From: Phycisphaera mikurensis NBRC 102666
Lineage (GTDB): Bacteria; Planctomycetota; Phycisphaerae; Phycisphaerales; Phycisphaeraceae
Assembly: GCF_000284115.1 (NCBI RefSeq)
Contig: NC_017081.1
Location: forward strand, 1 to 32,000
DNA length: 32,000 nt
Direction: 5' to 3'
A program made the translations under genes and the position numbers. How positions within the stretch are numbered: position 1 is the first letter of the stretch; every line of letters begins with the position of its first letter. Below, in pieces: positions 7,482-23,000 of this stretch. Below the pieces are notes generated by a model. The model ran no database searches. It was given only the letters and a program-made list of their open reading frames with translations, and was not told the DNA's origin.

Positions 7482-8219
7482 TCACCCCGCCGCCCGGATG
7501 CTCACGCTCCCCTGCGAGGCGACGACGATGTGGTCGAGTACCTCCACCCCCAGCGTCCGGCCCGCCGCTTCCAGGCGTCGCGTCACGGCGTGGTCTTCGG
7601 GGCTCGGGCTCGGGTCTCCGCTTGGGTGGTTGTGCACGAGCAGGACCGCCGCGGCCGCGTCTCTGAGCGTCGGCCGGAAGACCTCCCGCGGGTGCACAAG
7701 GCTCGCGTCCAGCGTGCCCACCGTCACCCGGTGCGTGCCGATGACATGGTGCCGCGTGTCCAGCGTGACAACGTGAAACTCCTCCTGCACGCCGTCGGTG
7801 GCGAGGCGTGCGAAGCGACGCCGGCAGAACGCGAGGGCTGACGCGGTGCCGGTGATCGTTGCCTCGGGCGGGGCCTCCGCCGCGGCCGCCACCCGACGGC
7901 CCAGTTCCACCGCGGCGAGCACCCGGCCCAGCGTCCGCCGCTTCAGGCCCGGGACCGCCTCGCCCAGCTCCGCGTCGCCCACCGAGAGCAGCCGCCGCAC
8001 GTCCCCACCGCACAGGCCCATGATCCGCCGGCCGGCCTCCTCGGCGTCGGCCTTGGTCCGTGTGTCCGCGTCCACCACCACGGCCACCAGTTCCGCGTCG
8101 GTCATGCCGGCCGCGCCGTCACGCCGGATGCGCTCACGGGCGACGTCAACGCCCACCGCGGAACGCCGGGGGTAGAGGCCGGCGGAGGGGTTCGGGTGGC
8201 TGGAAGGCTGAAAGGTCAT
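7482..8219 (-). CDS. radC: RadC-like JAB-domain protein
   Basis: ATG at 8219 preceded by GGAG 7 nt upstream. It carries the JAMM/RadC signature VHNHPSGDPSPSPED and helix-hairpin-helix-like N-terminal half. The longer track ORF (to 8324) would run through the conserved upstream hairpin. Confidence 0.9.
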   Translation of the reverse strand: MTFQPSSHPNPSAGLYPRRSAVGVDVARERIRRDGAAGMTDAELVAVVVDADTRTKADAEEAGRRIMGLCGGDVRRLLSVGDAELGEAVPGLKRRTLGRVLAAVELGRRVAAAAEAPPEATITGTASALAFCRRRFARLATDGVQEEFHVVTLDTRHHVIGTHRVTVGTLDASLVHPREVFRPTLRDAAAAVLLVHNHPSGDPSPSPEDHAVTRRLEAAGRTLGVEVLDHIVVASQGSVSIRAAG

Positions 8220-8505
8220 CGCATCGCTCCAAGGGGCACCGCTCGGGCGCCGGGTGTCGGGATGCAGGGGTCGCGCGAATCTCACGCTCTCGGGCCAACA
8301 CGTTTTTGGCCCCTCCCTGCACAAGCAGGGAGGGAGGGGTCAAAACACGCAGCTCTCACCGGGCTGCCGCCCGGAGCGACCGCAGCGCGGGCACGCCATA
8401 ACGGAGGCGAGGAGGGCGGGAGGATCTGATCGCAGCGCAGCGGAGAACTCCACGCGGAGCGAGGAGGCGGGTCAGATCCGAGTGGCCGACGAGCCGACGG
8501 CGGGG
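8220..8505. promoter_or_regulatory. Structured leader element R1 upstream of radC
   Basis: Contains bulged hairpin H1 (8307-8342), the conserved AGCGACCG block, long-range stem GGATCTGA (8422-8429)/TCAGATCC (8472-8479), and distal block CGACGGCGGGG. Paralogous to R2 and R3. Confidence 0.65.
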
Positions 8506-8580
8506 CGTGACGGCGCGGAGGAAGAGGAGGGCGGTGGCCCGGTGCGGCCAGCCGGTCCCCTCGGGGGCCGGCGTTCCTTC
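8490..8580. repeat. About 90-nt repeat at the distal edge of R1 (partner of 14996-15083)
   Basis: CGAGCCGACGGCGGGGCGTGACGGCGCGGAGGAAGAGGAGGGCGGTGGCCCGGTGCGGCCAGCCGG...GGCGTTCCTT aligns by eye, with few mismatches and one small indel, to 14996-15083. Confidence 0.6.
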
Positions 8581-8613
8581 GCCCGCCTGATGGCTCGTTG
8601 CGGCCGCCTGCGG

Positions 8614-8838
8614 CTACGGCCTGTCAAGATAGGGCATCGCTGCCCGCATTGCATCGTGTTCGTGCCCGTAGGCGGGGCGGGCGGTGCCCTCGCGGAGCAG
8701 CTTCCCGATGGTGAGGCGTGGAACGCCCCGGGCCACTCGAACCTTCGCGTCGTCCGGGAAGTCGGTCCGCTCCAGGCTGGCCGCGGCGACGCCGCCGTCG
8801 TCGCTGACCAAGAGGTAGAGGGGTGGGGGGATGCTCAA
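8614..8838 (-). CDS. Small hypothetical protein (74 aa), possibly excisionase/AlpA-like HTH (weak)
   Basis: TTG start, no clear RBS. The sequence is non-shadow-like (LYLLVSDDGGVAAASLERTDFPDDAKVRVARGVPRLTIGKLLREG). The FP..vrv..g..R..l pattern is only loosely HTH_17-like. Confidence 0.3.
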   Translation of the reverse strand: MSIPPPLYLLVSDDGGVAAASLERTDFPDDAKVRVARGVPRLTIGKLLREGTARPAYGHEHDAMRAAMPYLDRP

Positions 8839-8935
8839 GGGACCGCCGGTTTACAACGCGGGGCGTCAATGTGCGTGCGCTTGTGGCTGCGCCGCCTGGC
8901 GTTGAGCCTGCTCAAGCGGACGCCGGGAAGGCAAC

Positions 8936-8994
8936 GGGGTGTCGGGGCAGGGCCCCGACCGCGCGGCGACCCGGAGGGGAGCCGCGCGCGGCCG
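8936..8994. repeat. Double-hairpin repeat, copy 2 (just after the ardC stop)
   Basis: GGGGTGTCGGGGCAGGGCCCCGACCGCGCGGCG...GCCGCGCGCGGCCG. Hairpin a is a perfect GTCGGGGC/GCCCCGAC here. Confidence 0.6.
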
Positions 8995-9049
8995 AGACCC
9001 GGCCACGGCGAAGCGTTCGCACGACCGCTCCAGGCCCCCAGCCCCGGGC

Positions 9050-10030
9050 TCACTCGGGGCCGGTCTTTCGGTCCTCCGCCGCCGGGCGGATCAGGTCAAC
9101 CGCCTTCTGCGCAGCGCCCGCCGCCTTCAGGAAGAAGCCGCTGTCGGTCTGCATCCGGTCCAGCCAGCCAGCGACGTACGCGGCGCTCATCTCCTCGGTG
9201 ACCGGGGCAATCCCGCAGTGAGCACAGAGCAGGGACGCCGCCAGCTCCGCGACCATCTCCTCCTCGGCGTAAGGATCCAGCAGTCCGGAGCCCGCCTCGG
9301 TGATGCCCCTGCGGCCCAGCCGCGACGCGTGCCCGGTGCTGTGCGCGATCTCGTGGAAGAGCGTTGAGAAGTAGGCCTCGGGCGTTTCGTAGCTCGCCAG
9401 CGGCGGCGTCACCACCACGTCGGTGCGGCAGTTGTAGTGCGGGGTGACCTCCATCTCCACGCACCCCGGGGCCCCGGGCGACCGCAGGAAGCCGGTCGCC
9501 ACCTCGGCGCAGGCCCGCAGCTCGGGCGGGCAGGCGTCGGGCTCCAGCGGGACCTCCCCCGGCGCGGCCTCGGTGTCCAGCCCGTCGACGTCCTCGACGT
9601 TGAAGACGTTGTATGTCTTGAGGAAGGCCACCCGCTTCTTCTCCCCGCTGGGGTTCTTCTTGTCCTCCTTCTCCATGAAGTTCCAGAAAACGATGGGCAC
9701 GCTCTTGGATCCGGCCCGCACCTGCCCCCCGGCTTGAGCCGCCTGGCGGTAGGTCATCCACAGCGGCCGGGTGAAGCCGCGCTTCCGCTCGGCGAGCCAG
9801 AGCAGGAAGACGTTCACGCCCCGGTACTTCTTCCCGGTGACGAGGTTGGCCGGCAGGAATCCCGACTCGGTGCCGGTGTGCTGGGGCCGCCACGGGACGG
9901 TTCCCGCCGTCAAGGCCTCCACGATTCGGTCGGTGACCTCTTGGGCGATGTCCCGGCGGGGCTTGGGGGCGTCCTTGCGGGCGGGCTTGCGGGTGCGGGT
10001 GCTGGACGATCGGGAAACGGAAGCGGACAC
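9050..10030 (-). CDS. ardC: ArdC antirestriction protein (N-terminal ssDNA-binding DUF1738 domain plus C-terminal zincin metalloprotease)
   Basis: EVTDRIVEALTAGTVPWRPQ, KKYRGVNVFLLWL, PIVFWNF and LFHEIAHSTGH are characteristic of ArdC. I place the start at GTG 10030, preceded by AGGAG with a 6-nt spacer. The ATG at 10156 would translate through conserved hairpin H1. Confidence 0.9.
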   Translation of the reverse strand: MSASVSRSSSTRTRKPARKDAPKPRRDIAQEVTDRIVEALTAGTVPWRPQHTGTESGFLPANLVTGKKYRGVNVFLLWLAERKRGFTRPLWMTYRQAAQAGGQVRAGSKSVPIVFWNFMEKEDKKNPSGEKKRVAFLKTYNVFNVEDVDGLDTEAAPGEVPLEPDACPPELRACAEVATGFLRSPGAPGCVEMEVTPHYNCRTDVVVTPPLASYETPEAYFSTLFHEIAHSTGHASRLGRRGITEAGSGLLDPYAEEEMVAELAASLLCAHCGIAPVTEEMSAAYVAGWLDRMQTDSGFFLKAAGAAQKAVDLIRPAAEDRKTGPE

Positions 10031-10335
10031 GGCGAACTCCTGGAGCCCACAAGGGGCGGGATGAATCGCAGGGGCTACGCGTGTCGCTGCACGCTCCGGG
10101 CCAAGCCATTGCTTTTGGCCCTCCCTGCGCAGGCAGGGAGGGAGGGCCAACAGCAACCAACACAGGGGGCTCTCCCGGGGCGAAGCGACCGAGAGGCGGG
10201 AACGGCATGACGGAGCGGGACGGGGCCTCTGGGATCTGATCGCCCCAGCCGACGCAGTCGGCTCGGGCGACCGCGAAGCGGCGGGTCAGATCACGAGCCC
10301 CTCGCCCCGCGACGGCGGGACGTTCAGGCCGTCAG
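10031..10335. promoter_or_regulatory. Structured leader element R2 upstream of ardC
   Basis: H1 at 10115-10150 (14 bp with a 4-nt AGGG bulge), AGCGACCG block, stem GATCTGA (10233-10239)/TCAGATC (10286-10292) enclosing the perfect inner hairpin AGCCGAC-gca-GTCGGCT, and distal block CGACGGCGGGACG. Collinear with R1 almost throughout. Confidence 0.65.
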
Positions 10336-10923
10336 GGAGTGCAGCCACGGGTGGGCCCCGGCTTGCCGGCTCCGCCGGCGGACCTCAGAAGGCGGGCGAA
10401 GCCCGCCCCGACGGCTGCCCGGCCGCGCCGGGTGTCCTCTGCTTGCGGCCCGGAAGCGGGAGCAACCGGGACTGGACGCCGCGCGGGGCCCAGAGGGGCC
10501 TCCGGGGGCGGGAAGCCCAGCCGGGAACCGGCTCGGCGGCCTGCGGAAGCAGGGCCCGCCCACGAGTCCCCCGCGCCGCCCCCGTGGCGGACGGCCCGGG
10601 GGCCGAGCGAGCAAACCCGCACCGGAACCCGCCCGGCGGCCACGCCGCCGGTCCGCTCCCCGGCCGGGCGACGGCCGCGGGGCTGGCCGTCCCCGGCGAG
10701 CCCCGCGGCCCCAAGCCGGGCCGCTTCCGCCCCCCAAGATCAACCGCCGCCCGGGCGGCCGGGCGATGTGCCTGCGCAGCGGGGACACGGCCCGGTCGCT
10801 CGGGCTTCCGAGGGCGGGCCACGTTGCCCGCACGCCTCCGGTGGGCGCTCCTCCGTGCCACTCCAGTCAAGACCCATCCGGAACCACCAGGCGGGATCCC
10901 GCCACCCCGCCCGGCCGCTGTCG
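10336..10923. other. About 590-bp extremely GC-rich region without a credible ORF
   Basis: All overlapping track ORFs on both strands are Arg/Pro/Gly/Ala shadows. The region is dense in short GC hairpins (GGCGGGC-gaa-GCCCGCC, AGCCGG-gaa-CCGGCT, palindrome GGCGGGATCCCGCC). Confidence 0.5.
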
Positions 10924-11196
10924 TCAGTACTCGTCCGGGAACAGGATCGTCGTTGAGCTGCGGTCCGCTTCGGTGATGACGTAAACCTCGCCGTGGGGGG
11001 TGTCGAAGCGGCTGAGGACGCGGCCCCCGTGCTTCACCGCGAGGCGGTTGGCCTCGGCGTCATTGGGGCACAGAAGTCCAATGTCCCCCCGGAGGTGTCG
11101 CCGGAGGAGCCCGGCGAGATCTCTGATGGTGAAGATCTGCACCACACTGACGGTGGCGACAGTGCGGCCGAGCGGGAAGGCGCGGGTGGGGTTCAT
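10924..11196 (-). CDS. Small conserved plasmid/ICE-associated protein (90 aa), function unknown
   Basis: ATG at 11196. The pattern LGRTVAT...RRHLRGDIG...NDAEANRLAVKHGGRVLSRF...VYVITEADRSSTTILFPDEY matches, from memory, a small protein family recurrent on plasmids/ICEs that ends in ITEADRSxTT(I/V)LxPxEY. Confidence 0.7.
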   Translation of the reverse strand: MNPTRAFPLGRTVATVSVVQIFTIRDLAGLLRRHLRGDIGLLCPNDAEANRLAVKHGGRVLSRFDTPHGEVYVITEADRSSTTILFPDEY

Positions 11197-11203
11197 GGTC
11201 TGG

Positions 11204-11246
11204 GGTCTTCGGGTGGGGTGGGTGAGGAACACCCACGCGGAAGACC
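11204..11246. promoter_or_regulatory. Two-tier hairpin abutting the start of the 90-aa gene
   Basis: Outer stem GGTCTTC (11204-11210)/GAAGACC (11240-11246), inner stem GTGGGTG (11218-11224)/CACCCAC (11230-11236), loop AGGAA. Located 8 nt from ATG 11196. Confidence 0.45.
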
Positions 11247-11338
11247 GCCCCGCGGGAGCGGGGCGATCGACCTCGGCGGAACGAAGAGAAACCGCGTGCC
11301 GGTGCCGCCGGCAGCGGATCCGGCCTGGGGCGGTGGGG

Positions 11339-11596
11339 TCAGTCCCCGCCGCCGGCTTCTTCTTGAGCCTCGTGGATCCAGTCGAAGGCCAGCGAGGCGA
11401 CCTTCTCGAGGATGGGCAGGTCCTGCAGCCCGAAGCTGGTGGAGTCCTTCCACTCCCCGTCGACCTGGTAGCCGCGGGAGAAGGTGGCTTGGTGCCGGAC
11501 GCCGCTCTGAGTCTCGTTGGCCCAGATGGCCGCCTTGATGGTGCCCACGCGGACGGTGTGGGCGGGACGGGTGGTGTTGCTGTGGTGCTTCGCCAT
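11339..11596 (-). CDS. Small conserved plasmid/ICE-associated protein (85 aa), function unknown (possibly a small ssDNA-binding fold)
   Basis: ATG at 11596 with AGGAA about 9 nt upstream. VRVGTIKAAIWANETQSGVRHQATFSRGYQVDGEWKDSTSFGLQDLPILEKVASLAFDWI resembles, from memory, a recurrent small mobile-element family (IKAxIWxN...R.Y..dgeWk.S.sF). The fold guess is inference only. Confidence 0.7.
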   Translation of the reverse strand: MAKHHSNTTRPAHTVRVGTIKAAIWANETQSGVRHQATFSRGYQVDGEWKDSTSFGLQDLPILEKVASLAFDWIHEAQEEAGGGD

Positions 11597-11850
11597 GAGA
11601 GGGTTTCCTTTCGGAGGGGGGTGAGGGGGTCCGTACGCAAGAACGGCGGGCCCCCTCACCCCCCGGGAGGAAACCGCCGGCGGGTCCGCCGCGGGCGAGA
11701 CCGGCGCAGCGACCGGAGGCGGGAGCGGCGTGCCGGAGGCGAGGGTGTGCCGGGAATCTGATCGCCCCCAGTCATGGGGAGCGACCCGAGCGCAGAGAGG
11801 GCGGGTCCGATTCCGGGTGCTCCCGCAGCCGACGGCGGGACGCTCAGGCC
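11597..11850. promoter_or_regulatory. Structured leader element R3 upstream of the 85-aa gene
   Basis: 14-bp perfect GC hairpin GGGGGGTGAGGGGG (11616-11629)/CCCCCTCACCCCCC (11651-11664). Shares with R1/R2 the AGCGACCGGAGGCGGGA block, stem GGAATC (11753-11758)/GATTCC (11809-11814), and distal CGACGGCGGGACGCTCAGGCC. Confidence 0.6.
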
Positions 11851-12269
11851 GGATGGGAAGCGCAGCGGGCTCGACCGTGGAGGCCACGCCGGCACAGGCG
11901 AAGCACGACGTCGCCCCCGCACGTCCTGCCACATCCTCGTGGTGCTCTCTCACCCGGCCGGCTCGTGCAACGCGACCCGGCGGTCGACTTCAAAACGCTC
12001 TCGCGTGGTGACGTGACGGGGGCAAAGGCTCCGCCCGCTCGCGCTCCTCACCGCCCATCCAGAAGATGGCCCGGCCTTCACGATCCACGCGTCGTGGGCT
12101 TTGACGGTGGGGCGGTCCTGCAGGCCGCACGGCCGGGGTTGCAGTTGGTGGCCTTTGCCCGGCGCCCCTCTCCATCGGGTGGTCGATCGTCCCGCTCTCG
12201 CGGGGCGGCGCAGCCTCTTCTTCGCCCATCCCGCTCGGAGCAGCCGGGTCAGATTCAACCCGCGTCGAC

Positions 12270-12511
12270 CGATCATTCGTCCGCCACCTTGTTGTTTCGA
12301 GAGCGACCCTCCACGAAGTTTGCTGGTCGCCGCGCTCGGGTTCGTGCCCATGTCGATCGCCACCGTCAGCGGAGCCGAGGTGCAGAAGTCGCTGGCCGCC
12401 GTCGTCATCGGCGGGGCCGTCAGCACCACCCTGCTGATGCTGGTCGTGCTTCCGGCGATCTGCCGGATCTGGCTTCCGATCGACCCAAGGGTTCCGCGGG
12501 GACCCAGTTGA
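12270..12511 (+). pseudogene. Truncated 3' remnant of a CzcA/CusA-family RND efflux pump gene
   Basis: The C-terminal part of track ORF 12101..12511 reads AALGFVPMSIATVSGAEVQKSLAAVVIGGAVSTTLLMLVVLPAICRIW, the conserved last TM region of heavy-metal RND pumps. No upstream pump sequence is present, and homology fades near 12270-12320. Confidence 0.7.
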
Positions 12512-12536
12512 GCGACCGCGAGCCAACGATGAGGCA

Positions 12537-14258
12537 ATGCCACGGCTCCAGCACCTCTCCAGCGGCGACCGCAACTGCCGGTTCATGCCCGTCGACCGGC
12601 GGGTGCCTTTCCGACTCAGTGCGTTCTGGCGGCACCTCGACGACCTCGGGCTGACCCATCCAGACCGGCTGGATCCGGAGCGTCTGATCCGGCGTGGTTG
12701 GCTCCGCCCTCTGTTCACCCTCTCCGCGGAGAAGGCTGGCTCTGAGGACGCCCCCAGCCGGGTCGATCTCTGGCTCGGCACCCGCCTCGGCGACCGCTTC
12801 GACTCCTTTGCAGGCGACTGGTGGTCGGCTGACCTGGACCGGGTCGAAGACCCCGACACCGACGCGATCCTGGCGGCCGGCCGGGAGCCGACCGCCCCCC
12901 AAGCGGGCGAAGAAGACGATTGGCACGCGGACCGGATCGAGGTCTACCGGTACCACCAGGCCTTCCTGGTTGCCGATTTGCAGGAGCGCTGCACGTCCCG
13001 GAGCGACCCCCTCGCGTGCGATCTCGACGGGGCGCACGCGGCGCTGCAAAGCAACCAGCAGCGTCAAGCCCGCGAAGCCGCTGCCGTTCGAAAGCAGTGG
13101 GCAGACATCGCACCCGTCCTCGACCGCGTCTCGCTCTGGCGGACCGCCGTGAGCACCCACGCATTCCCGGGCCTGACGCCGGCGGACGGATCCGACGCCT
13201 GGGTCTGGGCCGACGCGGAAGCCGACCTGCTCGCTCGCGACGCCGAGACCGGCGCGGCGTGGGAGGAGGACATCCGCGCCGCGTACCTGACGACCTGGGA
13301 GCGGTGGCGGAGGATGCTCCCCGGGGGGCCGCTCGCCTCCCCCAAGCTCGTCGGCCTGTTCCGCCAGGACGTGCAGCACGCGATCGCGGCTGCAGAGACC
13401 ACCACCGGGCAAAGCGTCGACTTCCTCGACGAAACTTGGGACTACGGGCGCCCCTGGCACGCGGACGCGAGCAGGGGTCGCCGCTCCTGGGCGAGGCTGC
13501 TGGAGGTGCTGCCCTTCGAAGAAGACGTCGCGATGGTGGAGTTTCCCGTGCGGGCCCGCATCTACCTCCGCGGCCTCCAGCACATGGCGTGTCGAACGCT
13601 CGACGAGACCGACCTCTTCCAGGCCGTCTCGCCGGTCCGGCACCGGCCACTCGTCAACCGCATCCTCCTGAGCTTCCGCCGCACGCACGAGGACCTCGAT
13701 GTGAGTCTCAGCAGCGACCCGAGAGCCGTCCTCCCAGCGAAGGAGCGGATCACCAGCATCCACCAGACCCTCCTTGACCTCGAGAAGGCGCTCATCGCCT
13801 GGAGCATCCGGGTCACGAACCCGGCGAAGGAGCCAGACCTCAGAAAGTGCATGAAGCAACTGCTCGGATTCATGCTGGACCAGCAGGGCTGGTCTGGTGG
13901 GGAGATCGCCACCCGGAAGGGACAGCTCGAGAAGCTCTGCGAGGGACGCAGTGGGAGCAAGGCGCACATCACAGGCGAGCTTCCGCTCATCGACATGGCC
14001 GATGTTCCGCAGGCGCCGCCGGCGTTGCAGGAGTTCTTCATCGCCGCGGTCAACTTCCTCGTGGGCCGGAACCACGCCGCGCACAGCTCCAGCGTCGATC
14101 GATCCATCATCTATGTGCAAAAGGACGAGGAGCGGGACGAGCACGTCGGCGGGCGGATCCTCACCGGCGCTCTCGTGGTGTTCATGGAGCTGACGGCCGC
14201 CCTCGCTGAGGAGGCGGGAACGGCTGCTACCGGCACCGGTGGTGAAGCCTGCTCCTGA
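12537..14258 (+). CDS. Hypothetical 573-aa protein with C-terminal HEPN-like RNxxAH motif
   Basis: Long ATG ORF of diverse composition that starts 25 nt after the RND remnant stop. About 60 residues from the C-terminus, FLVGRNHAAHSS fits the Rx4-6H (RNxxAH) HEPN signature in a helical context. No other domain recognised. Confidence 0.7.
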   Translation: MPRLQHLSSGDRNCRFMPVDRRVPFRLSAFWRHLDDLGLTHPDRLDPERLIRRGWLRPLFTLSAEKAGSEDAPSRVDLWLGTRLGDRFDSFAGDWWSADLDRVEDPDTDAILAAGREPTAPQAGEEDDWHADRIEVYRYHQAFLVADLQERCTSRSDPLACDLDGAHAALQSNQQRQAREAAAVRKQWADIAPVLDRVSLWRTAVSTHAFPGLTPADGSDAWVWADAEADLLARDAETGAAWEEDIRAAYLTTWERWRRMLPGGPLASPKLVGLFRQDVQHAIAAAETTTGQSVDFLDETWDYGRPWHADASRGRRSWARLLEVLPFEEDVAMVEFPVRARIYLRGLQHMACRTLDETDLFQAVSPVRHRPLVNRILLSFRRTHEDLDVSLSSDPRAVLPAKERITSIHQTLLDLEKALIAWSIRVTNPAKEPDLRKCMKQLLGFMLDQQGWSGGEIATRKGQLEKLCEGRSGSKAHITGELPLIDMADVPQAPPALQEFFIAAVNFLVGRNHAAHSSSVDRSIIYVQKDEERDEHVGGRILTGALVVFMELTAALAEEAGTAATGTGGEACS

Positions 14259-14312
14259 CGGCCTCTCGGACCGCGATCGCTGCCCCTCATTCGCCGGAGT
14301 ACCTTCGGAAGG

Positions 14313-14738
14313 ATGCCGAAGAGGACGACCCTGCTTGCTCCGAGGCTGCTGCTCGCCGTGCCGCTCGCGCTGGCGATCGCGGGTGTTCTCCTCTCCCCGT
14401 GGTTCGACGAGCCCACCATCTCAACGGTGACCAGCGCGGGCTTCGTCGTACACGCTTCGGAAGCCTCCTCCGGTGTGGCCGGGCGGCTGGAAGACGCTCC
14501 GGCCGCGGCGCCGCGTCCGGGGTGGCTGGCCGCACACCACGCGGTCGTCGCTTCGAACGATCCCGGCGCGACCCGAGACGCGAAGCGTGTCCTCCTGCTC
14601 TTCGGCCTGGCCGCGGCGCTGGTGATCGTCCTCGTCGCGCCGGTGTCCCGCGGGTCTCCGTCGCTGGGGCCTTGGCTCCCGCCATCCCCTCACGGCCGGG
14701 TCGTGGAGGCACCGCCCGCACCGAACTTCCATCCGTGA
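14313..14738 (+). CDS. Small putative membrane protein (141 aa, two predicted TM helices)
   Basis: ATG at 14313 preceded by GGAAGG. Hydrophobic stretches are LLLAVPLALAIAGVLLSPWF and VLLLFGLAAALVIVLVAPV. No homology recognised. Confidence 0.45.
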   Translation: MPKRTTLLAPRLLLAVPLALAIAGVLLSPWFDEPTISTVTSAGFVVHASEASSGVAGRLEDAPAAAPRPGWLAAHHAVVASNDPGATRDAKRVLLLFGLAAALVIVLVAPVSRGSPSLGPWLPPSPHGRVVEAPPAPNFHP

Positions 14739-14995
14739 GGCCTGAGCCCCTCGCACCGGGCCGAAGCCCGGCGCGTCGAGACACCTTCATCGTCCGGACC
14801 GCACGACATCCTCTGAATTTGCTTCTTGGCTTCACGGGCGACCTTGGGATCCGAGCGGCGGCATCGAGCTTGATCGCCACCGATCTGCCCGGCTGCGCGG
14901 GGAGGCCGTACGTCGACACCGTCGACCTGAAGATGGAGGTCCGGGCGGAAGCACGAGCGGCCCGAGCCGCTCCCGACGGAGCGGCGAGCAACAGA

Positions 14996-15083
14996 CGAGC
15001 CGACGGCGAGGCATGACGGCGCGCCAGAAGAGAAGGGCGGTGGACCGGTGCAGCCAGCCGGACCCCGGAGGCGGCGTTCCTTT
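14996..15083. repeat. Partial (distal-half only) copy of the R1-type element
   Basis: CGAGCCGACGGCGAGGCATGACGGCGCGCCAGAAGAGAAGGGCGGTGGACCGGTGCAGCCAGCCGGACCCCGGAGGCGGCGTTCCTT aligns to 8490-8580. The H1 hairpin and GATCTGA stem are absent. Confidence 0.55.
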
Positions 15084-15199
15084 CCTCTCTGCACAATGGA
15101 TTAGAGACTTGACCTCCGTTCCCGGCCCAGGAAGCGAGGCCTCACGCGGCTCAATCCATAAACGCCTGCGCGTGACCGGCGTCCTTGGCTTCCACTGCA

Positions 15200-17038
15200 A
15201 TGATCGGCCGCATGGAGTACACCATCGAGCGGTTCATGTGGAGCTATCAGGCACACTTCCGCATGGCCGCGGAGTTTGCGGCCGAAGGCGTGGCGAAGCA
15301 ACTGGGTCTGGAGCTTGAGCCAGAGGTCTTCCTGGTGGGTCTGCGGGTCGAGGAGCCCGCGGCGGTTGTTCATGCGGCTTGCGTGGAGCCAGAGGATCAC
15401 CACTGGGCCGATTCGGCAAGCATGGATCACCTCGCCGAGGAGATCGAAGCGGAGGTCAAGCGGGACCCGGCTGCGGAGATGTTCATCAGCCACCCCGTTG
15501 GGGCACGGCGTTACGCGGAGGGGCTGCGTGCCGCCGCCGTGCGGCGCCTCATCCTCGGACACCTCGAAGCCTGCGACCACCGGCCGCCCGGCCGACGCAT
15601 CCTCGTGTCCGGGGCGGTCCGCCGCGACGACCACTGGATCTGCATGGTGTTGACCGTGGACGAGCGGGTGTGGGAGGCCGTGCCCTCCATCGAGATGACC
15701 GGGCGGGAGGACCACCGCGGCAGCGTGTACCACGTCCCCGCGAGCCTCGCCGAAGCGGCGGTGAGGGAACTCTTCGCCGAAGTCTCGCGTGCTTTGACGA
15801 TGCCCGATGCCGGATCGGATCTGCACTTCCTCGACGCCTACGACGAACTCCTTCGAAGGGCTGGCGCGCGGTTCTTCTTCGGGCTGATCTCCCGGGGAGG
15901 CTTCGGGCAGCGGGGTGACACGCGGCAGTTTGCCGCTCTCGACGGTCTCTCGCTCGCGGCCTATGAGAAGCAGGAGGCCCGGGGGCGCATCGTCTTGCTC
16001 GGGCCCCTCGCGGCCGCGTCCGACGACGCATGGGCACCGCCTCTTTCGATCCGGTTCCGGGAGCCCCTCTCGATCCACAACCTCCGCGGCCTGCGGAAGG
16101 TGCTTTCCCTCACCAATGATTCCACCGCCGCGGTCTGCACGCCGGACGGTGTGATCGGCACCGCGTCCGGAGTGGGGAGCGCCGAGCCCGTTGCCGGCCG
16201 GCCGGTTCTGGCGTGCTTTGAGGGCCGAGCGGCGTGGAGCGTCCACGCGGAGGGCCGGGAGCTGATGCGGATTGAAGACGGCCGCCCCGGGCTTCCCGCT
16301 CAGCCTCTTGAACCCGTCGACTTCGCCTTCGAGCTCCGCCGGCGGGTGCCGGGGCTCGGGCGGCAAGACGCGGACGCTCTTGCCGGCCTTGCCACGACGC
16401 TCGCTGGCGCCGACCACGGGGCCGTGCTGGTGGTGACACCCGACGCGGCGGCGGAAGCGGGGCGGCTGCAGGCGACCTCATTGCCCATCGAGCCTGTCAC
16501 GTTGACCGAGCCACTGGCGCTGACCTTCGCCGGCATCGACGGGGCCACCCTCTGCGACGCCCGGATGCAGGTGCACGCCATCGGTGTGATCCTCGACGGG
16601 CTCGCCACCGAGAAGGGCGATCCCGCCCGCGGCGCCCGCCTCAACGCGACTCTGCGGTACGTCGAGTCGAGCCCGGGGCGTCGCTGCGCCATGGTGGTTT
16701 CGGAGGACGGAGGGATCGAACTGCTCCCGAAGCTCAAGCCAGCCGTCCACCCCGAGGAACGCCGTGCGGCTCTTGCCGAGCTGGCGCGGCTAGCCGACGA
16801 TGACCCCGAGCGTCACGCCCGCAAAGATGAGCTGGCGGCCATTGAGCGCGTCCGGCGTTGCGCTCACACGCTCGAAGATGATCACTGCGCAGCCGCAAAC
16901 CGGGACCTCGCGTCCATCGAGAGCCGATTCTACAAGGACGCCGAGTTCAAGATCACGACGCCGCCTTGGCGGGTGGACCCGTCTTTTGCGCCGGAGCGAG
17001 ACCTGCGAGAAGACGCGCCGCGAACCACGCAAGACTGA
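15200..17038 (+). CDS. Hypothetical protein with C-terminal diadenylate-cyclase-like (DisA_N/DAC fold) domain, RHR motif degenerate
   Basis: Track ORF 15185..17038; ATG candidates at 15200 and 15212. The C-terminal region HGAVLVV...IDGATLCD...VHAIGVIL...GARLNATLRY...AMVVSEDGGIELL is collinear with the CdaA/DisA motifs GALIVI...HDGAVII...AAAGCYL...GTRHRAA...IVVSEETGGISL. The N-terminal two-thirds is unrecognised. Confidence 0.7.
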   Translation: MIGRMEYTIERFMWSYQAHFRMAAEFAAEGVAKQLGLELEPEVFLVGLRVEEPAAVVHAACVEPEDHHWADSASMDHLAEEIEAEVKRDPAAEMFISHPVGARRYAEGLRAAAVRRLILGHLEACDHRPPGRRILVSGAVRRDDHWICMVLTVDERVWEAVPSIEMTGREDHRGSVYHVPASLAEAAVRELFAEVSRALTMPDAGSDLHFLDAYDELLRRAGARFFFGLISRGGFGQRGDTRQFAALDGLSLAAYEKQEARGRIVLLGPLAAASDDAWAPPLSIRFREPLSIHNLRGLRKVLSLTNDSTAAVCTPDGVIGTASGVGSAEPVAGRPVLACFEGRAAWSVHAEGRELMRIEDGRPGLPAQPLEPVDFAFELRRRVPGLGRQDADALAGLATTLAGADHGAVLVVTPDAAAEAGRLQATSLPIEPVTLTEPLALTFAGIDGATLCDARMQVHAIGVILDGLATEKGDPARGARLNATLRYVESSPGRRCAMVVSEDGGIELLPKLKPAVHPEERRAALAELARLADDDPERHARKDELAAIERVRRCAHTLEDDHCAAANRDLASIESRFYKDAEFKITTPPWRVDPSFAPERDLREDAPRTTQD

Positions 17039-17077
17039 AGAGCGACCTCGCCGGACCCAGGGCCAAGCACCGGTCGC

Positions 17078-17239
17078 TCAAGCCCACGCCGACTCCGCCC
17101 GCTTCATCGCGATCCGCTTCGCGGTGTAGAACAGCACCGGGTAGAGCAGAAGCTCCGCGACGAAGCTGGTGGTCAGCCCGCCGGGCGTGGGCGCGGCGAG
17201 CCGCTGCACCGTGCTGGCGCTGACGCGGGTGGCGATCGC
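17078..17239 (-). pseudogene. Truncated 3' remnant of a second cusA-like gene (direct repeat of the cusA 3' end)
   Basis: The minus-strand frame reads IATRVSASTVQRLAAPTPGGLTTSFVAELLLYPVLFYTAKRIAMKRAESAWA*, versus the intact CusA C-terminus FATGAGSDTMQRLAAPMIGGLATSFVAELLLYPVLFYSAKRIAMKRDAS*. Nucleotide similarity to 20066-20230 is obvious. The fragment starts right at the copB stop. Confidence 0.8.
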
Positions 17240-17251
17240 CTCGGGTGCGTC

Positions 17252-18187
17252 TCAGAAGCTCAGCCGCACGCCTGCGACCACTTCGAAGCGGTCGGCGGAG
17301 CCGCCCTCGGCCGCGATGATGTCGGCGGTGTTGCCGCTGGCGAAGCTGTAGCGGAGTCCTGCGTAGGGCGCCACCTCCCGGCGGGACTCGTAACGCAGAC
17401 GCAGCCCGAGGCTGGTGTTGGAGAGACCGGCACCCAGCCCGCGCTCGCGGTTGTCCTGCGCCTCCAGCCGCACCTCCGCCCGCGGCTGAAGCACAAGACG
17501 CTGGGTGATCCGCACGTCATAGGACGTCGTCAGCCGGAAGGAGACATCGGCGTCCTCGGAGAGAAACGCGCTGGCGTCGACCTCGAAGAGCCCGGGCGCA
17601 AGCCCCTGCACCGCGAGGGCGAGCGAGTACGTGTCGTCGTACACGCCGGGTGCCCAGGCGTTGGCGTACTGAAGCCCGGCCTGCGCGGACCAGAACGGCG
17701 TGACCAGGTAGGAGTACAGCACGTCGGTCTCGCTCTCGCCCTCGTCGGGACCTTCGAAGCCAGCCCCGCCCTCGGCCTTGACCACCAGCTTGTGGTAGTC
17801 GCCGCCGACCCAGTAGAGCGCGTCCCAGCCGAGCGTGTCGGGGCCGCCGTCGTCGATCCGCCACTCGAGTTGCTCGACGAGGAGCAGGTCGTAGATCTGG
17901 CTGTCCATCACCGGGAGGTGGTACTCGGTGGGCGGGTCGCCCGCGGCGGCGTCGAGTACCTCGTCAAGGGTCAGGCCTGTAGGCAGCGGCGGGTCGAGCC
18001 ACTCGCCGGCGGTGGCCGGTGCGGGCGGGGACGTGGTCTCCGCCGATGGCGCCCCGGGCGTCTCTAACATCGGCATGCTCATCGTGTGCTCCGGCTCGGG
18101 TTGTGCCCGAAGAACGGGCGCCAGGAGAAGGAGCAGCGCCGCGGCGAGGGCGTGACGCGCGGTGAAGCGGGGATCAGGACTTCGCAT
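17252..18187 (-). CDS. copB: Copper resistance protein B (CopB/PcoB outer-membrane protein)
   Basis: Signal peptide, Met-rich N-terminus (HTMSMPMLE), and the LEWRIDDGGPDTLGWDALYWVGGDYHKLVVKAEGG core typical of CopB. The start overlaps the copA stop by 14 nt. Confidence 0.85.
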   Translation of the reverse strand: MRSPDPRFTARHALAAALLLLLAPVLRAQPEPEHTMSMPMLETPGAPSAETTSPPAPATAGEWLDPPLPTGLTLDEVLDAAAGDPPTEYHLPVMDSQIYDLLLVEQLEWRIDDGGPDTLGWDALYWVGGDYHKLVVKAEGGAGFEGPDEGESETDVLYSYLVTPFWSAQAGLQYANAWAPGVYDDTYSLALAVQGLAPGLFEVDASAFLSEDADVSFRLTTSYDVRITQRLVLQPRAEVRLEAQDNRERGLGAGLSNTSLGLRLRYESRREVAPYAGLRYSFASGNTADIIAAEGGSADRFEVVAGVRLSF

Positions 18188-20045
18188 CTTGCGCCTCCCC
18201 TTCCAGGCTGCGGACGACGGCGACGGTGCGGAACATGCCGACCTCCATGTGGTAGAGCAGGTGGCAGTGGAAGGCCCAGTGGCCCGGGGCGTCGGCGGTT
18301 ACGTCGATGCTGAGCAGCTCGGCGGGCTGCACGATCGTGGTGTGCTTCCGCGGGATCTTGTCGTAGGGCTGGCCGTTGTGCAGGTCGCTCCACATCCCAT
18401 GCAGGTGCATGGGGTGAGGCATCATCGTGTCGTTCACGTAGTTGATGCGGAGCCGCTCCCCGTAGACGAAGCGGATCATCTCGCTCTGGGACCACTTCTT
18501 CCCGTCGATGCCCCAGATGTACCGGCCCATGTTGCCGGTGAGGTGCAGCGTCATCTCCCGCGTGGGCGGCCGCCGGTCGGCGGGGGTTTCCACGCACCGC
18601 AGGTCGGCGTAGGTGAGCACCCGCCAGCCATCGGAGCCCAGCCCGGTGCCCGGTTCGGCGGAGCGGCGGTAGGCGACCATCGCGACCGTCGAGTTCCCGG
18701 CCCCGTGCTCGTCGGGCCCGTGCATCACTTCGTCCGGGAGGTTCTCGACCGGGAGCGTGCCCCCGCCCCCGCCCCCGCCCCCGGGCATCTCCATCCCGCT
18801 CATGTCGCCGCCCCCGCCCCCGGGCATGTCCATCCCCGCCATGCCTCCGGGCCCGTCCATGCCCTTCATGCCCATGTCCGCCATGGTCAGCATGGCCCGC
18901 TCCCGCCGCGCGGGCAGCGGCCCAGCCCGGCCGGGGTCGGTGCCAATCGTCGCCCGGGCGAAGCCGCTGCGGTCGGCGCTCTCGCAGAAGAGCGTGAGCG
19001 GCCCCGCGCCCGCCGAGGCCGGGGGCACGGTGAAGAGCACGTCATAGGTCTCGGCCACGCCGATGCGGAACTCGGATACCTCCACCGGCTCGACGCCGTG
19101 GCCGTCGGCCCCGACGACCGTGAGCGGGAGCGGAAGCAGCGCACCGTCCGCGGACCCGACCACCCGGACGTCGAAAAAGGTCATCGCCGAGGCATTCGCC
19201 ACCCGCAGCCGGACCCGCTGGCCAGGCCGCACCCGGAGGAAGCCCCCGTCGTCGGGTCCGCGTCCGTTGACCAGGTACGTGTAGATCGAGCCGGTGACGT
19301 CGGCGAGGTCCGTGGGGTCCATCCGCATCTTCTGGAAGGACCAGCGGACCCCGAGCACCTCCGGGATCGACCGATCCTCGCGGCGGGCCTGGTTGCTCAG
19401 GTTCGCCAGCGTCGGCTTCTGGAAGTTGTAGTACCCCTCCTTGGTCTTGAGGTTGTCGAGCACGCGGTGGGGGTCTTCGAAGGTCCAGTCCGAGAGAACG
19501 ACAGGGTGCTCCACGTCGGCGGGCTCCGAGGCGTCCGGCCCCTCGGGCTCGACGACGATCATCCCGTAGTGGCCCACCTGCTCCTGCAGCTCGGTGTGGC
19601 TGTGGTACCAGTAGGTCCCGGCCTGGCGGACCGGGAAGCGGACCTCGAAGGTCGTGCCCGGGTCGATCCCCGCGTAGCTGATGCCCGGCACGCCGTCCAT
19701 CGTGTAGGGGACGATGAGCCCGTGCCAGTGGACCGAGGTCAATTCCTCCAGCCCGTTGTGAACCCGGATGAGCGCCTCGGCCCCCTGCTTCATGCGGACG
19801 ATGGGCCCGGGAACGGCCCCGTTGAGCGAGATCGCTTCGGTCTGGGCGCCGGCGATCCTCAGGTGTTGCCGCGCGACGTAAAGGTCCGCCCCGCCGGGGG
19901 CGGAGGCGTCGATGGAGGGCAGCGCCGCGGAGGGTCGTGGAGCCGGAGCGGCGAAGAGCCGCGAGGGCGCGAAAGCCGCGACGCCGGCGAGGCCGACCGC
20001 GGATGTCACGAAGCGGCGGCGGCCGATGGGTGGGGGTTGAAGCAT
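18174..20045 (-). CDS. copA: Multicopper oxidase CopA/PcoA (Tat-exported)
   Basis: ATG at 20045 with twin-arginine signal IGRRRFVTSAVGLAG. Copper-binding motifs HWHG, YHSH, HPMHLHG and HCHLLYHMEVGM, plus a Met/Gly-rich insert (MADMGMKGMDGPGGMAGMDMPGG...). The 1266-aa track ORF is an artefactual upstream extension. Confidence 0.9.
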   Translation of the reverse strand: MLQPPPIGRRRFVTSAVGLAGVAAFAPSRLFAAPAPRPSAALPSIDASAPGGADLYVARQHLRIAGAQTEAISLNGAVPGPIVRMKQGAEALIRVHNGLEELTSVHWHGLIVPYTMDGVPGISYAGIDPGTTFEVRFPVRQAGTYWYHSHTELQEQVGHYGMIVVEPEGPDASEPADVEHPVVLSDWTFEDPHRVLDNLKTKEGYYNFQKPTLANLSNQARREDRSIPEVLGVRWSFQKMRMDPTDLADVTGSIYTYLVNGRGPDDGGFLRVRPGQRVRLRVANASAMTFFDVRVVGSADGALLPLPLTVVGADGHGVEPVEVSEFRIGVAETYDVLFTVPPASAGAGPLTLFCESADRSGFARATIGTDPGRAGPLPARRERAMLTMADMGMKGMDGPGGMAGMDMPGGGGGDMSGMEMPGGGGGGGGTLPVENLPDEVMHGPDEHGAGNSTVAMVAYRRSAEPGTGLGSDGWRVLTYADLRCVETPADRRPPTREMTLHLTGNMGRYIWGIDGKKWSQSEMIRFVYGERLRINYVNDTMMPHPMHLHGMWSDLHNGQPYDKIPRKHTTIVQPAELLSIDVTADAPGHWAFHCHLLYHMEVGMFRTVAVVRSLEGEAQDAKS

Positions 20046-20065
20046 CGCTGTTTTCAGGTGAAGGG

Positions 20066-23000
20066 TCAGGAGGCGTCTCGCTTCATCGCGATCCGCTTGG
20101 CGGAGTAGAAGAGCACCGGGTAGAGCAGCAGCTCGGCGACGAAGCTGGTGGCGAGACCGCCGATCATCGGGGCGGCGAGGCGCTGCATCGTGTCGGAGCC
20201 GGCGCCGGTCGCGAAGAGCAGCGGCATCAGGCCGATGAAGGTGGTCATCACCGTCATCGTCTTGGGTCGGATCCGCTGGACGGCGCCGTCGTGGACGGCG
20301 TGCATCAGGTCGTCGGTCGTGTTCAGCCGGCCCTCGCGCTTGAAGCGCTCGTGGCTGTCGTCGAGGTAGAGCAGCATCACCAGGCCGGTCTCGGCGTCGA
20401 GCCCGGCGAGTGCGATGACGCCCACCCACACGGCCAGCGACATGTCGTAGCCGAGGAACCAGGTGAACCACGCGGCGCCGATCAGCGAGAAGGGCACGGC
20501 GAGCAGCACGATGCCCACCCGCAGCCAGCTCCGCGTGGCGACGAAGAGCAGGAGCAGGATCACCACCGCGGCCAGCGGGATCGCGAGTTGCAGCCGCTCC
20601 CGGGCGTCCTGCATGTACTCGTACTGGCCCGACCAGCGGACGGTGTAGCCCGGCGGCAGCTCCAGCCGCTCGGCCACGACGGCCTGCGCCGCCTCGACGA
20701 AGGTGCCGATGTCGGTGTCCTTGATGTCGACGTACACCCAGCTGGTCGGCCGGGCGTCCTCGCTCTTGATCATCGGCGGCCCACGCCGGATGACGACCTT
20801 GGCGAGCTGGCCCAGCGGGACCTGAGCGCCGCCGGGCGTGGCGACGAGCACCTTCTCCAGCGACTCGGGGTCGTCGCGCAGCTCCCGCGGGTAGCGGAGG
20901 CTCACCGGGTAGCGCTCCAGCCCCTCCACCGTGGAGGTGACGTTCATGCCGCCCACCGCGGTCATCACCACGTCCGCCAGGTCGCCCGAGGAGAGCCCGT
21001 AGCGGGCGATCGCCTCGCGGTCCACGTCCAGGTCGAGGTAGTTGCCCCCGACGGTCTTGTCCGGGAAGGCGCTGGCGAGCGTGGTGCGGGTCCGCTCGTC
21101 GGTCTTCAGGAGGTCGGCGACCTCGCCGGCCAGGTCCGAGAGCACGGTGAGGTCCGGGCCCATGATCTTCACGCCCACCGGCGTGCGGATGCCGGTGGAG
21201 AGCATGTCGATCCGGGTGCGGATCGGCATCGTCCAGGCGTTGGAGAGCCCGGGGATCTGCAGGGCGTCGTTCATGCCCGGGATGCGGAAGCCCCTGCCGC
21301 CCCGGTCGACGCCGAGCTGCGCGTCGGTGAGTTCGTACCCGTAGATCAGCTCGTCGGGGGTGATCGTCCGCGTGGGCGGCAGCAGCTTCGAGGGCGCCCA
21401 CGCCAGCCAGCCGGGCCAGCCGGAGTAGAAGCGCTCCACCGGCCGCTTCCGCCACGCCACCTCGTCGCGGTGGAGCGTGATCGTCGTCTCGAGCATCGAC
21501 ACCGGCGCCGGGTCGGTCGCGGTCTCGGCCCGGCCGATCTTCCCGAAGACGTGCTCGACCTCGGGGAAGGCGGCGATCAGCGCGTCGGTCTGCGCCAGCA
21601 GCTCGGTCGCCTTGGAGACGCTGATCCCCGGATCGGTGGTGGGCATGTACAGGAGGTCGCCCTCCTCCAGCGGCGGCATGAACTCCGAGCCCAGCTTCGA
21701 CCAGGGGTAGAGCGTGCTGCTCATCAGGAGCGCCGCGATCAGGATCGTCAGCGCCCGGTGCTTCATCGTGAAGCGGAAGAAGGGCTCGTAGGCGGCGCGG
21801 ATCACCCGGCTGATCGGGTTGTCGTCCTCGTTGGAGATCCGCTGCCGCGGGACGAGCAGGAGCACGGCCAGGGCGCCGCCGACCGCAACGAGCCAGCGGC
21901 TGTCCTCCAGCGCCCCCAGCGGGAGGAAGGCGAAGAGACCGAAGGTTCCCACCGCGCAGAGCGCCGCGACCCACTTCCGGGGGCCGCCCTCGCGGAGCGT
22001 GTACACCATCACCACCGGGATCAGCGTGACGGCCACGCCCGCGGCGGCGGCCATGGCGAAGGTCTTGGTGTACGCCAGCGGCTTGAAGAGCCGGCCGCTC
22101 TGGCCGTCGAGCACGAAGATCGGCAGGAAGCTGACCATGATGATCAGCAGCGAGAAGAACAGCGTGGGGCCGACCTCCGCCGAGGCGTCGGCGATCACCG
22201 ACGCGTGGCTGCGCGGCGGCTCGCCCGCCTCGCGCTGGTGGTGCTCTCGCTCCAGGTGCTTGTGCGCGTTCTCGACCATCACGATCGAGCTGTCCACCAT
22301 CACGCCGATCGAGATCGCGATGCCGCCCAGGCTCATGATGTTCGCGTTCAGGCCCAGCGCGTACATGACGCCCAGCGTGAGCAGCACCCCCGCGGGCAGC
22401 ACCAGCGCGGCGACCAGGGCGCTGCGGGCGTGCAGCAGGAAGATCAGGATGACGCAGCCGACCACGAGGATCTCCTCGGTCAGCGTCCCGGTGACGGTGT
22501 GGATCGCCCGCTCGATGAGGTCGCTACGGTCGTAGGCGACCTCGACCGCCACGCCGGGCGGCAGGCCCTCCTCCAGCTCGAAGAGCCGATCGCGGACGCG
22601 GCCGATCGTCGCCTGGGCGTTCTCGCCGAAGCGCATGATGACCACGCCGCCGGCGGTCTCGCCCTCCCCGTCCCACTCGGCGACGCCGCGGCGGATCTCC
22701 GGGCCGATGGCGACCTCGGCGACGTCGCGGAGGTAGATCGGAGCGCCGTCTTCGTTCGCCCCCAGCGAGATCGAGCGGAGGTCTTCGAGCACCCGGTCGG
22801 TCTGTTCCCGCCCCAGGGCGTCTTCCGCGGACCCCTCCGTGGGGTCTCCCGTGCCGAGGTAGCCGCGGCCGCGGACCATGAACTCGGTCTCGCCGCGCTC
22901 CACCACGCGGCCGCCTACATCGCGGTTGCTCCGCTGAATGGCCGCACGGACCTTGCCCAGCGGGAGCCCATACGCCAGCAGCCGGTTGGGGTCGACCGTC

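Follow-up and report, generated by a model that had tools for sequence, protein, structure and literature searches.

A candidate HEPN-like defence RNase of an unannotated protein family, standing alone on the second replicon of Phycisphaera mikurensis

We analysed the first 32 kb of the smaller of the two contigs in the 3.88 Mb genome of Phycisphaera mikurensis NBRC 102666 (contig NC_017081.1, positions 1 to 32,000; hereafter the window). This text is about P0001, a gene of the window that encodes an all-alpha protein of 573 amino acids (aa), and about the two open reading frames (ORFs) that follow it, P0002 and P0003 (Table 1). Our results suggest, with about an even chance that the whole picture is right, that P0001 is a solitary, stand-alone HEPN-like abortive-infection RNase of an unannotated family, the relatives of which are wired into restriction-modification (R-M) operons.

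An unannotated family with an invariant RNHAAH core

P0001 is a real gene under purifying selection. Its G+C content by codon position is 0.71/0.49/0.86, and the ratio of nonsynonymous to synonymous substitution rates (dN/dS), calculated against a 91% identical homologue on the metagenome contig L002, is 0.26. A word-indexed search of 5.8 billion clusters with P0001 returned just two homologues, the one on L002 and another, 47% identical, in locus L001. An exhaustive HMMER scan of 1.84 billion representatives gave 39 proteins at E < 1e-3, almost all of them 500-585 aa long and aligning with P0001 over nearly their full length. The family, about 39 clusters of proteins of about 570 aa, occurs in Planctomycetota, Acidobacteriota and Thiocapsa, and identity to P0001 in the 40-sequence family alignment is 20-26%.

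Neither Pfam, NCBIfam, PADLOC nor PHROGs contained a match to P0001, and the 40 family members gave nothing credible against Pfam, PADLOC and NCBIfam, just weak matches of single members. A match of one of the 40 members to the PADLOC model for JetA (DUF3375; E 1.4e-4) was treated as noise and is probably due to chance, since this model matched neither the window's gene nor the family genes in five other genomes. The family is, then, previously unannotated and absent from all four libraries.

A sequence-only reading of this DNA had described a 573-aa ORF with an RNxxAH-type motif about 60 residues from the C-terminus, and this description is correct. The segment FLVGRNHAAHSS (residues 507-518, nucleotides (nt) 14055-14090) contains RNHAAH, with R511 lying 62 residues from the C-terminus. 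The arginine and the histidine of the motif, the conservation of which had been proposed as a check, proved invariant: R511 and H516 are kept in all 39 sequences of the alignment that cover them, as are A515, D521, E416, R375 and R382, while N506 and N512 are kept in 38 of 39. The sole strongly conserved block in the family is N-x4-R-N-(Y/H)-A-A-H-(H)-(D)-x-x-D, together with E416, R375 and R382. The family consensus for this block reads N-x4-R-N-Y-A-A-H-H-D-x-L-D, and the clade to which the window belongs has RNHAAHS(S/T)SVD.

P0001 contains 56 arginines and 17 histidines, and the pattern Rx4-6H matches it seven times; RNHAAH alone among these matches is conserved. Note that RQDVQH (residues 276-281), which the same reading had advised not to over-read, was rejected as a motif, R276 being present in 23 and H281 in 2 of 38 sequences. 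RNHAAH is more than a chance match: a real protein family has it as its invariant core.

Predicted fold of P0001

Confident AlphaFold2 (AF2) models were obtained for the whole protein (predicted local distance difference test (pLDDT) 85.6, predicted template modelling score (pTM) 0.85) and for residues 396-573 (pLDDT 89.0, pTM 0.84). The model of P0001 is nearly all helical, with three short strands. In the DSSP assignment of the models, a helix at residues 371-387 carries R375 and R382, a helix at 401-427 carries E416, and a helical insert occupies 435-494. R511-H516 are the final residues of the next helix (495-516), after which the chain runs through a loop and a short helix into the last one, 537-565.

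If residues 368 to 565, approximately, form an HEPN-like domain, the helix with the two invariant arginines would be its helix-1 and the helix carrying E416 its helix-2, which in HEPN proteins holds the conserved acidic residue, when one exists (PMC3710099). The predicted position of the motif, at the end of the helix preceding the last one, and the presence of the invariant E416 two core helices before it fit the HEPN arrangement.

Several relatives of P0001 are embedded in restriction-modification operons

Family loci (L-numbers, L017 being the window's own copy) were recovered, 12 of them from species genomes, 19 from metagenomes and one from IMG/VR, plus the loci of both close homologues; the search for related loci was run with a 26-sequence sub-alignment of the family. 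Six of these loci have the family gene embedded in, and translationally coupled to, a type I R-M operon. In five of them (L009, L011, L024, L025 and L038) the order is hsdR-hsdS-family gene-(cargo)-hsdM, and in L005 it is Fic-family gene-hsdM-hsdR, with an R-M system that shares only some 30% identity with that of the other five, so that two independent lineages are represented. Where an overlap is seen in these operons, the family gene shares 4 nt with hsdS or with the next gene. Moreover, in L032 the family gene starts 9 nt past a gene for an MmeI-type enzyme. In a maximum-likelihood tree, the loci with type I operons fall into two clades apart from each other, and L032, with its MmeI-type enzyme, belongs to a third, which implies at least three independent linkages to R-M systems.

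Other relatives have different neighbours: Schlafen/AlbA_2 and AAA_21/23 ATPase genes in L006, SNF2 and RNase T genes in L008, an HNH gene in L015, a serine recombinase and a DUF2924 gene in L021, and an integrase gene in L030. It has been reported that at least 16 HEPN clades are tied to R-M systems (PMC3710099), and the company of the relatives of P0001 is classic for HEPN effectors of this kind. The R-M operons, defence genes and mobile elements around the relatives fit an abortive-infection or defence effector.

Defence cargo appears to collect in the interval between hsdS and hsdM. In L024 a HipA_C-like kinase gene (7697-8701) lies between the family gene and hsdM, and in L038 the cargo (7674-9120) consists of a 90-aa ORF plus a gene for a protein with HTH_3 and Peptidase_M78 domains (ImmA/IrrE-type). 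In two Acidobacteriota loci, L013 (4255-5961) and L015 (54-1754), a protein of about 567 aa is encoded directly upstream of the family gene; the two copies are 55% identical to each other and match nothing in Pfam. This protein was rejected as a paralogue of the family on comparison, and may be a partner of the family protein in that clade.

The two downstream ORFs and a divergence breakpoint

The sequence-only reading had placed an ORF with two transmembrane segments (2-TM) about 55 nt downstream of P0001 and a DAC-like gene about 460 nt further on, all on the same strand. This layout stands, the gaps being 54 nt and 446 nt.

Positions 11598-20500 of the window align with positions 1-8882 of L002 at 96.4% nt identity. 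The divergence is not uniform: it changes sharply at about 14457, from 6-10% on the left (11598 to about 14457) to 0.4-1.6% on the right (about 14460 to 20500). The diverged block includes the upstream spacer, P0001 and the first third of P0002, and the near-identical block includes the rest of P0002, the DAC gene P0003, copB and a copA-like gene. P0001 differs by 6.8% and P0003 by 1.2% from the same relative, so the two genes appear to have been exchanged separately. The break looks like a recombination tract, or like locally accelerated evolution of a defence-type gene.

P0002 encodes 141 aa with hydrophobic segments at residues 7-30 (approximately) and 90-113, and its G+C content by codon position, 0.75/0.58/0.82, is coding-like. 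Its dN/dS against L002, however, is 0.91, as compared with 0.84-0.86 in the other two frames. The substitutions are confined to about the first 50 codons, because the divergence break falls inside the ORF. P0002 has a single homologue among the 5.8 billion clusters, 89% identical, and no family match in Pfam, NCBIfam, PADLOC or PHROGs. The comparisons do not support P0002 as a conserved gene; it is an orphan, and purifying selection has left no sign in it.

In L001 a SieB-family 2-TM gene (PF14163, E 6e-13) starts within the stop codon of the 47% homologue (TGATG). The Pfam match of this ORF (L001 11722-12354) is limited to residues 20-142, and its last 70 residues or so are Arg/Pro-rich and of low complexity, perhaps a frameshifted or mis-called end. 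Comparison of P0002 with this SieB-family protein gave just low-complexity Arg/Pro matches and no similarity.

P0003 encodes a protein of 617 aa, starting at a TTG codon, and has a dN/dS of 0.20 against L002. In Pfam it matches DACNG (6e-54) and DACNH (2e-16), and gives no match to the DAC domain itself. Its alignment with the NCBIfam model DS2_3_antiphage spans model positions 1-572 of 576, but the score of 395 bits stays below the cut-off of 630. The DS-2 system, a variant of CBASS, is composed of a phospholipase, a cGAS-type enzyme and the DAC protein DS-2C; homologues of DS-2C make cyclic di-AMP (c-di-AMP), DS-2 defence depends on the DAC, and of 30 homologues of this DAC 15 adjoin a CBASS (PMC13092281; 10.64898/2026.08.10.743927). 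A search of the whole genome for a SMODS-type CD-NTase gave no match, and no CBASS partner lies beside P0003, which stands as a solitary DS-2C-type gene.

Proposed mode of action and competing explanations

We infer the HEPN fold, the RNase chemistry, the dimerisation, the sensor role of the N-terminal region and the trigger as follows. The N-terminal all-alpha region, of about 365 residues, would act as a sensor or regulator, and the C-terminal HEPN-like domain (residues 368-565, approximately) would carry the active site. There, R511 and H516, aided by N512, E416 and D521, may form a metal-independent endoribonuclease site, which dimerisation would complete, as in other HEPN enzymes. Phage infection, or the failure of a first-line system, would release the RNase, which would then cut cellular and/or phage RNA and so stop phage growth. 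The copy in the window would do this on its own, from a short accessory cassette on the small second replicon, beside a DS-2C-type cyclase gene.

Several results weigh against this proposal. Foldseek searches with the whole model against PDB and BFVD, and with residues 396-573 against PDB, detected no structure of an HEPN protein and gave no match with E below 0.5. Among the HEPN models of Pfam, only HEPN_Apea matched any of the 40 members, at E 0.086 and among equally weak unrelated matches. Comparison with hhalign of the family with profiles of Abi_2 (34 sequences; also in a 2-sequence version) and HepT-like proteins (28 sequences) gave alignments of just 16-22 columns, with probabilities of 0.3-3.5%. 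In addition, the clade of the window (the window, L002 and L001) is separated by a long branch (2.39) from the R-M-linked clades, and its contexts are metal-resistance islands, not R-M operons, with czc-type genes and a P-type ATPase gene in L001 and cop/cus genes in the window. To these can be added that sequence and profile searches of PDB with P0001 and the family alignments were empty. Nevertheless, the hhalign negative has little weight, since Abi_2 and HepT-like, both accepted HEPN families, equally fail to detect each other (probability 0.6%). The best local alignment of the C-terminal-domain profile to either family puts motif on motif (RNxxAHH in Abi_2, R(N/D)xxxH in HepT-like); with the full-length family profile this occurs with Abi_2 only. 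HEPN homology is therefore not demonstrated statistically, and the assignment comes from motif, topology and context. Of the HEPN-like abortive-infection RNase that the sequence-only reading had proposed, the motif has turned out to be invariant and the topology and the defence context fit, while a statistical link to HEPN proteins was not obtained. P0001 most likely works like an HEPN protein, though we do not file it as an established member.

The same negatives are what favours a different explanation, which we regard as unlikely but credible: that the RN(Y/H)AAH(H)D block, set in a novel all-alpha fold, binds a ligand, a metal or DNA, or is an interaction surface; P0001 would then assist or regulate R-M and mobile-element functions, or be a toxin that works by another chemistry. 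No statistical link joins the family to any HEPN family or structure, and the fold has no Foldseek neighbour at all. Moreover, the H-H-D that follows the motif in most members could bind a metal, and the invariant arginines R202, R375 and R382 could bind nucleic acid. However, in the clade of the window S-S or S-T takes the place of H517 and D518, while R511, N512 and H516 stay, which is expected for Rx4H catalysis and not for an HHD metal site; the helix-end motif and the acidic residue of the proposed helix-2 also fit HEPN, and the control alignment deprives the hhalign result of most of its force. The downstream ORFs offer two other explanations. It is rather improbable that P0001 forms, in this clade, a two-gene module with a small downstream membrane protein acting as co-effector, anchor or antitoxin-like regulator. 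The SieB-family gene coupled to the 47% homologue argues for it, as do the position, strand and coding-like composition of P0002 and the lack of any terminator-like site between P0001 and P0002. Against it, P0002 and the SieB-family protein are not similar, P0002 evolves like its out-of-frame controls, carries the breakpoint and has no homologue beyond the 89% one, and at none of the 21 more distant loci is the family gene followed by a conserved small transmembrane gene; the partnership suggested for this ORF by the sequence-only reading is thus not upheld. A three-gene system, with c-di-AMP from the DS-2C-type cyclase switching on the HEPN-like protein as cyclic oligoadenylate (cOA) switches on Csm6/Csx1, we consider very improbable. 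The three genes are close together on one strand, the products of DS-2C homologues are as described above, the genome has no SMODS-type CD-NTase that could partner the DAC, and the three-gene layout recurs in L002 and L003. These two loci, however, are the same element (96.4% nt identity) and not independent cases. Searched with tblastn against L001-L017, P0003 matched only this near-identical element and its own copy, L017; the DAC gene is missing from all 22 other family loci examined, including that of the 47% homologue with 10 kb of flanks, and the neighbours scanned in the later loci contain no DAC domain. The 446-nt spacer in front of P0003 and the separate exchange of P0001 and P0003 also speak against it, and, as the sequence-only reading had said of P0001, no CARF, SAVED or other nucleotide-sensor domain is recognisable in it (Pfam, PADLOC and NCBIfam scans). 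Inclusion of the DAC gene in a module is not supported, and in the stand-alone RNase reading P0003 is a neighbouring defence-type gene that is not functionally tied to P0001.

A further step, which we put forward tentatively and think somewhat unlikely, is that the family is a new type of effector, in which a novel all-alpha fold is combined with an HEPN-like RNxxAH centre, either extremely diverged or convergent; in the R-M-embedded members the N-terminal region would be a sensor guarding the type I R-M complex, as in PrrC but with no ATPase. If the stand-alone RNase reading is true, the family would add to the HEPN effectors a new group that supports restriction-modification systems as a second line. 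Most of its members come from phyla that have been little studied (Planctomycetota and Acidobacteriota). Its N-terminal region, which has no known relative, could be a new infection sensor, and the R-M-embedded members would allow a direct test of the idea that an R-M complex can be guarded without the PrrC ATPase.

The cassette and its surroundings

The window has a G+C content of about 70%. The three ORFs have ArdC, RadC and SprT-like genes on their left and genes for CopB, a CusA-like RND pump and a CusB-like fusion protein on their right. The cassette itself is flanked on both sides by convergent remnants of RND-pump 3' ends. The left one, just upstream of P0001, matches the 3' end of the ACR_tran gene of L001, in the coding direction of that gene, at 80% nt identity; P0001 and its 47% homologue therefore both lie beside related metal-efflux genes. 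The right one corresponds to residues 1179-1230 of the window's own CusA (71% identity by tblastn). In the reading that we prefer, the cassette is a set of two or three unrelated accessory genes side by side, with no cyclase-to-RNase signalling.

A stretch of about 2 kb (10200-12300) lacks a clear codon-position G+C signal in all frames; a 204-aa ORF within it (11339-11953, minus strand) gave no match in Pfam. A scan for promoters and terminators over 11800-17400 found nothing, and neither did a megablast search of a plasmid collection. A search of the genome for N6_Mtase found none on the contig of the window, the sole strong hsdM-type match being on the other contig.

Table 1. Coordinates of the features discussed, in positions of the window
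Feature	Position	Strand	Basis
P0001, 573-aa all-alpha protein, candidate HEPN-like defence RNase	12537..14258	+	ORF, translation, coding GC, dN/dS, AF2
Proposed HEPN-like domain, residues ~368-565	13638..14231	+	DSSP of AF2 model, invariant residues, topology; borders inferred
E416 codon, invariant acidic residue of proposed helix-2	13782..13784	+	conserved in 39/39; translation
N506, flanking RNHAAH	14052..14054	+	
RNHAAH (R511-H516), conserved Rx4H motif	14067..14084	+	translation, alignment
D521, flanking RNHAAH	14097..14099	+	
P0002, 141-aa ORF, two hydrophobic segments, doubtful gene	14313..14738	+	hydropathy, dN/dS
Divergence breakpoint, approximate	14445..14470	.	pairwise alignment of window and L002, substitution positions and densities
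P0003, DACNG + DACNH protein, full-length DS-2C/CdaG homologue	15185..17038	+	Pfam, NCBIfam
RND efflux pump 3' end remnant, left cassette border	12322..12473	+	blastn, 80% over 152 nt
cusA 3' end remnant, right cassette border	17090..17245	-	tblastn with the window's own CusA

Comparison with known systems

The SieB family (PF14163) enters the comparison through the 47% homologue, which is coupled to a SieB-family 2-TM protein; the 2-TM ORF of the window occupies the same position, although P0002 itself has no SieB match. With DS-2, the likeness is that P0003 is a full-length homologue of DS-2C, yet it scores under the NCBIfam equivalog cut-off. Moreover, DS-2 has a CD-NTase and a phospholipase gene adjacent to the DAC gene; neither adjoins P0003, and P0001 and P0002 match nothing of the kind. 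The logic proposed in the three-gene explanation, a cyclase plus an HEPN effector, resembles that of the cOA-activated Csm6/Csx1 proteins (CARF) and of the SAVED-HEPN effectors. P0001, in contrast, shows no such domain in Pfam, PADLOC, NCBIfam or Foldseek, and its family does not co-occur with a cyclase.

HepT-like proteins (DUF86, PF01934) share with P0001 the R-N/D-x3-H context and an acidic residue a few positions later. HepT, however, has about 120-150 aa and is paired with an MNT antitoxin, whereas P0001 is far longer and has neither an MNT neighbour nor significant profile similarity. As to Abi_2 (AbiD/AbiF, PF07751), hmmscan gave no match over its domain of about 184 positions, and the similarity is confined to the 16-22 columns around RNxxAHH.

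The closest comparison is with the HEPN effectors linked to R-M systems (PrrC and Abi2/AbiD/AbiF; PMC3710099). PrrC and RloC combine an N-terminal ABC-ATPase with a C-terminal HEPN domain, while P0001 and its family have no ATPase match in any library, and neither the N-terminal region of P0001 nor its fold as a whole has a detectable relative. The likeness lies in the C-terminal RNxxAH(H) Rx4H motif at a helix end, in the conserved acidic residue upstream of it and in the large N-terminal non-catalytic region (PMC3710099). It extends to the operons: as occurs with PrrC/RloC-type loci, relatives of P0001 lie between hsdS and hsdM of type I R-M systems, sometimes with Fic/DOC (PMC3710099). The gene of the window does not share this R-M embedding, which is seen in L005, L009, L011, L024, L025 and L038.

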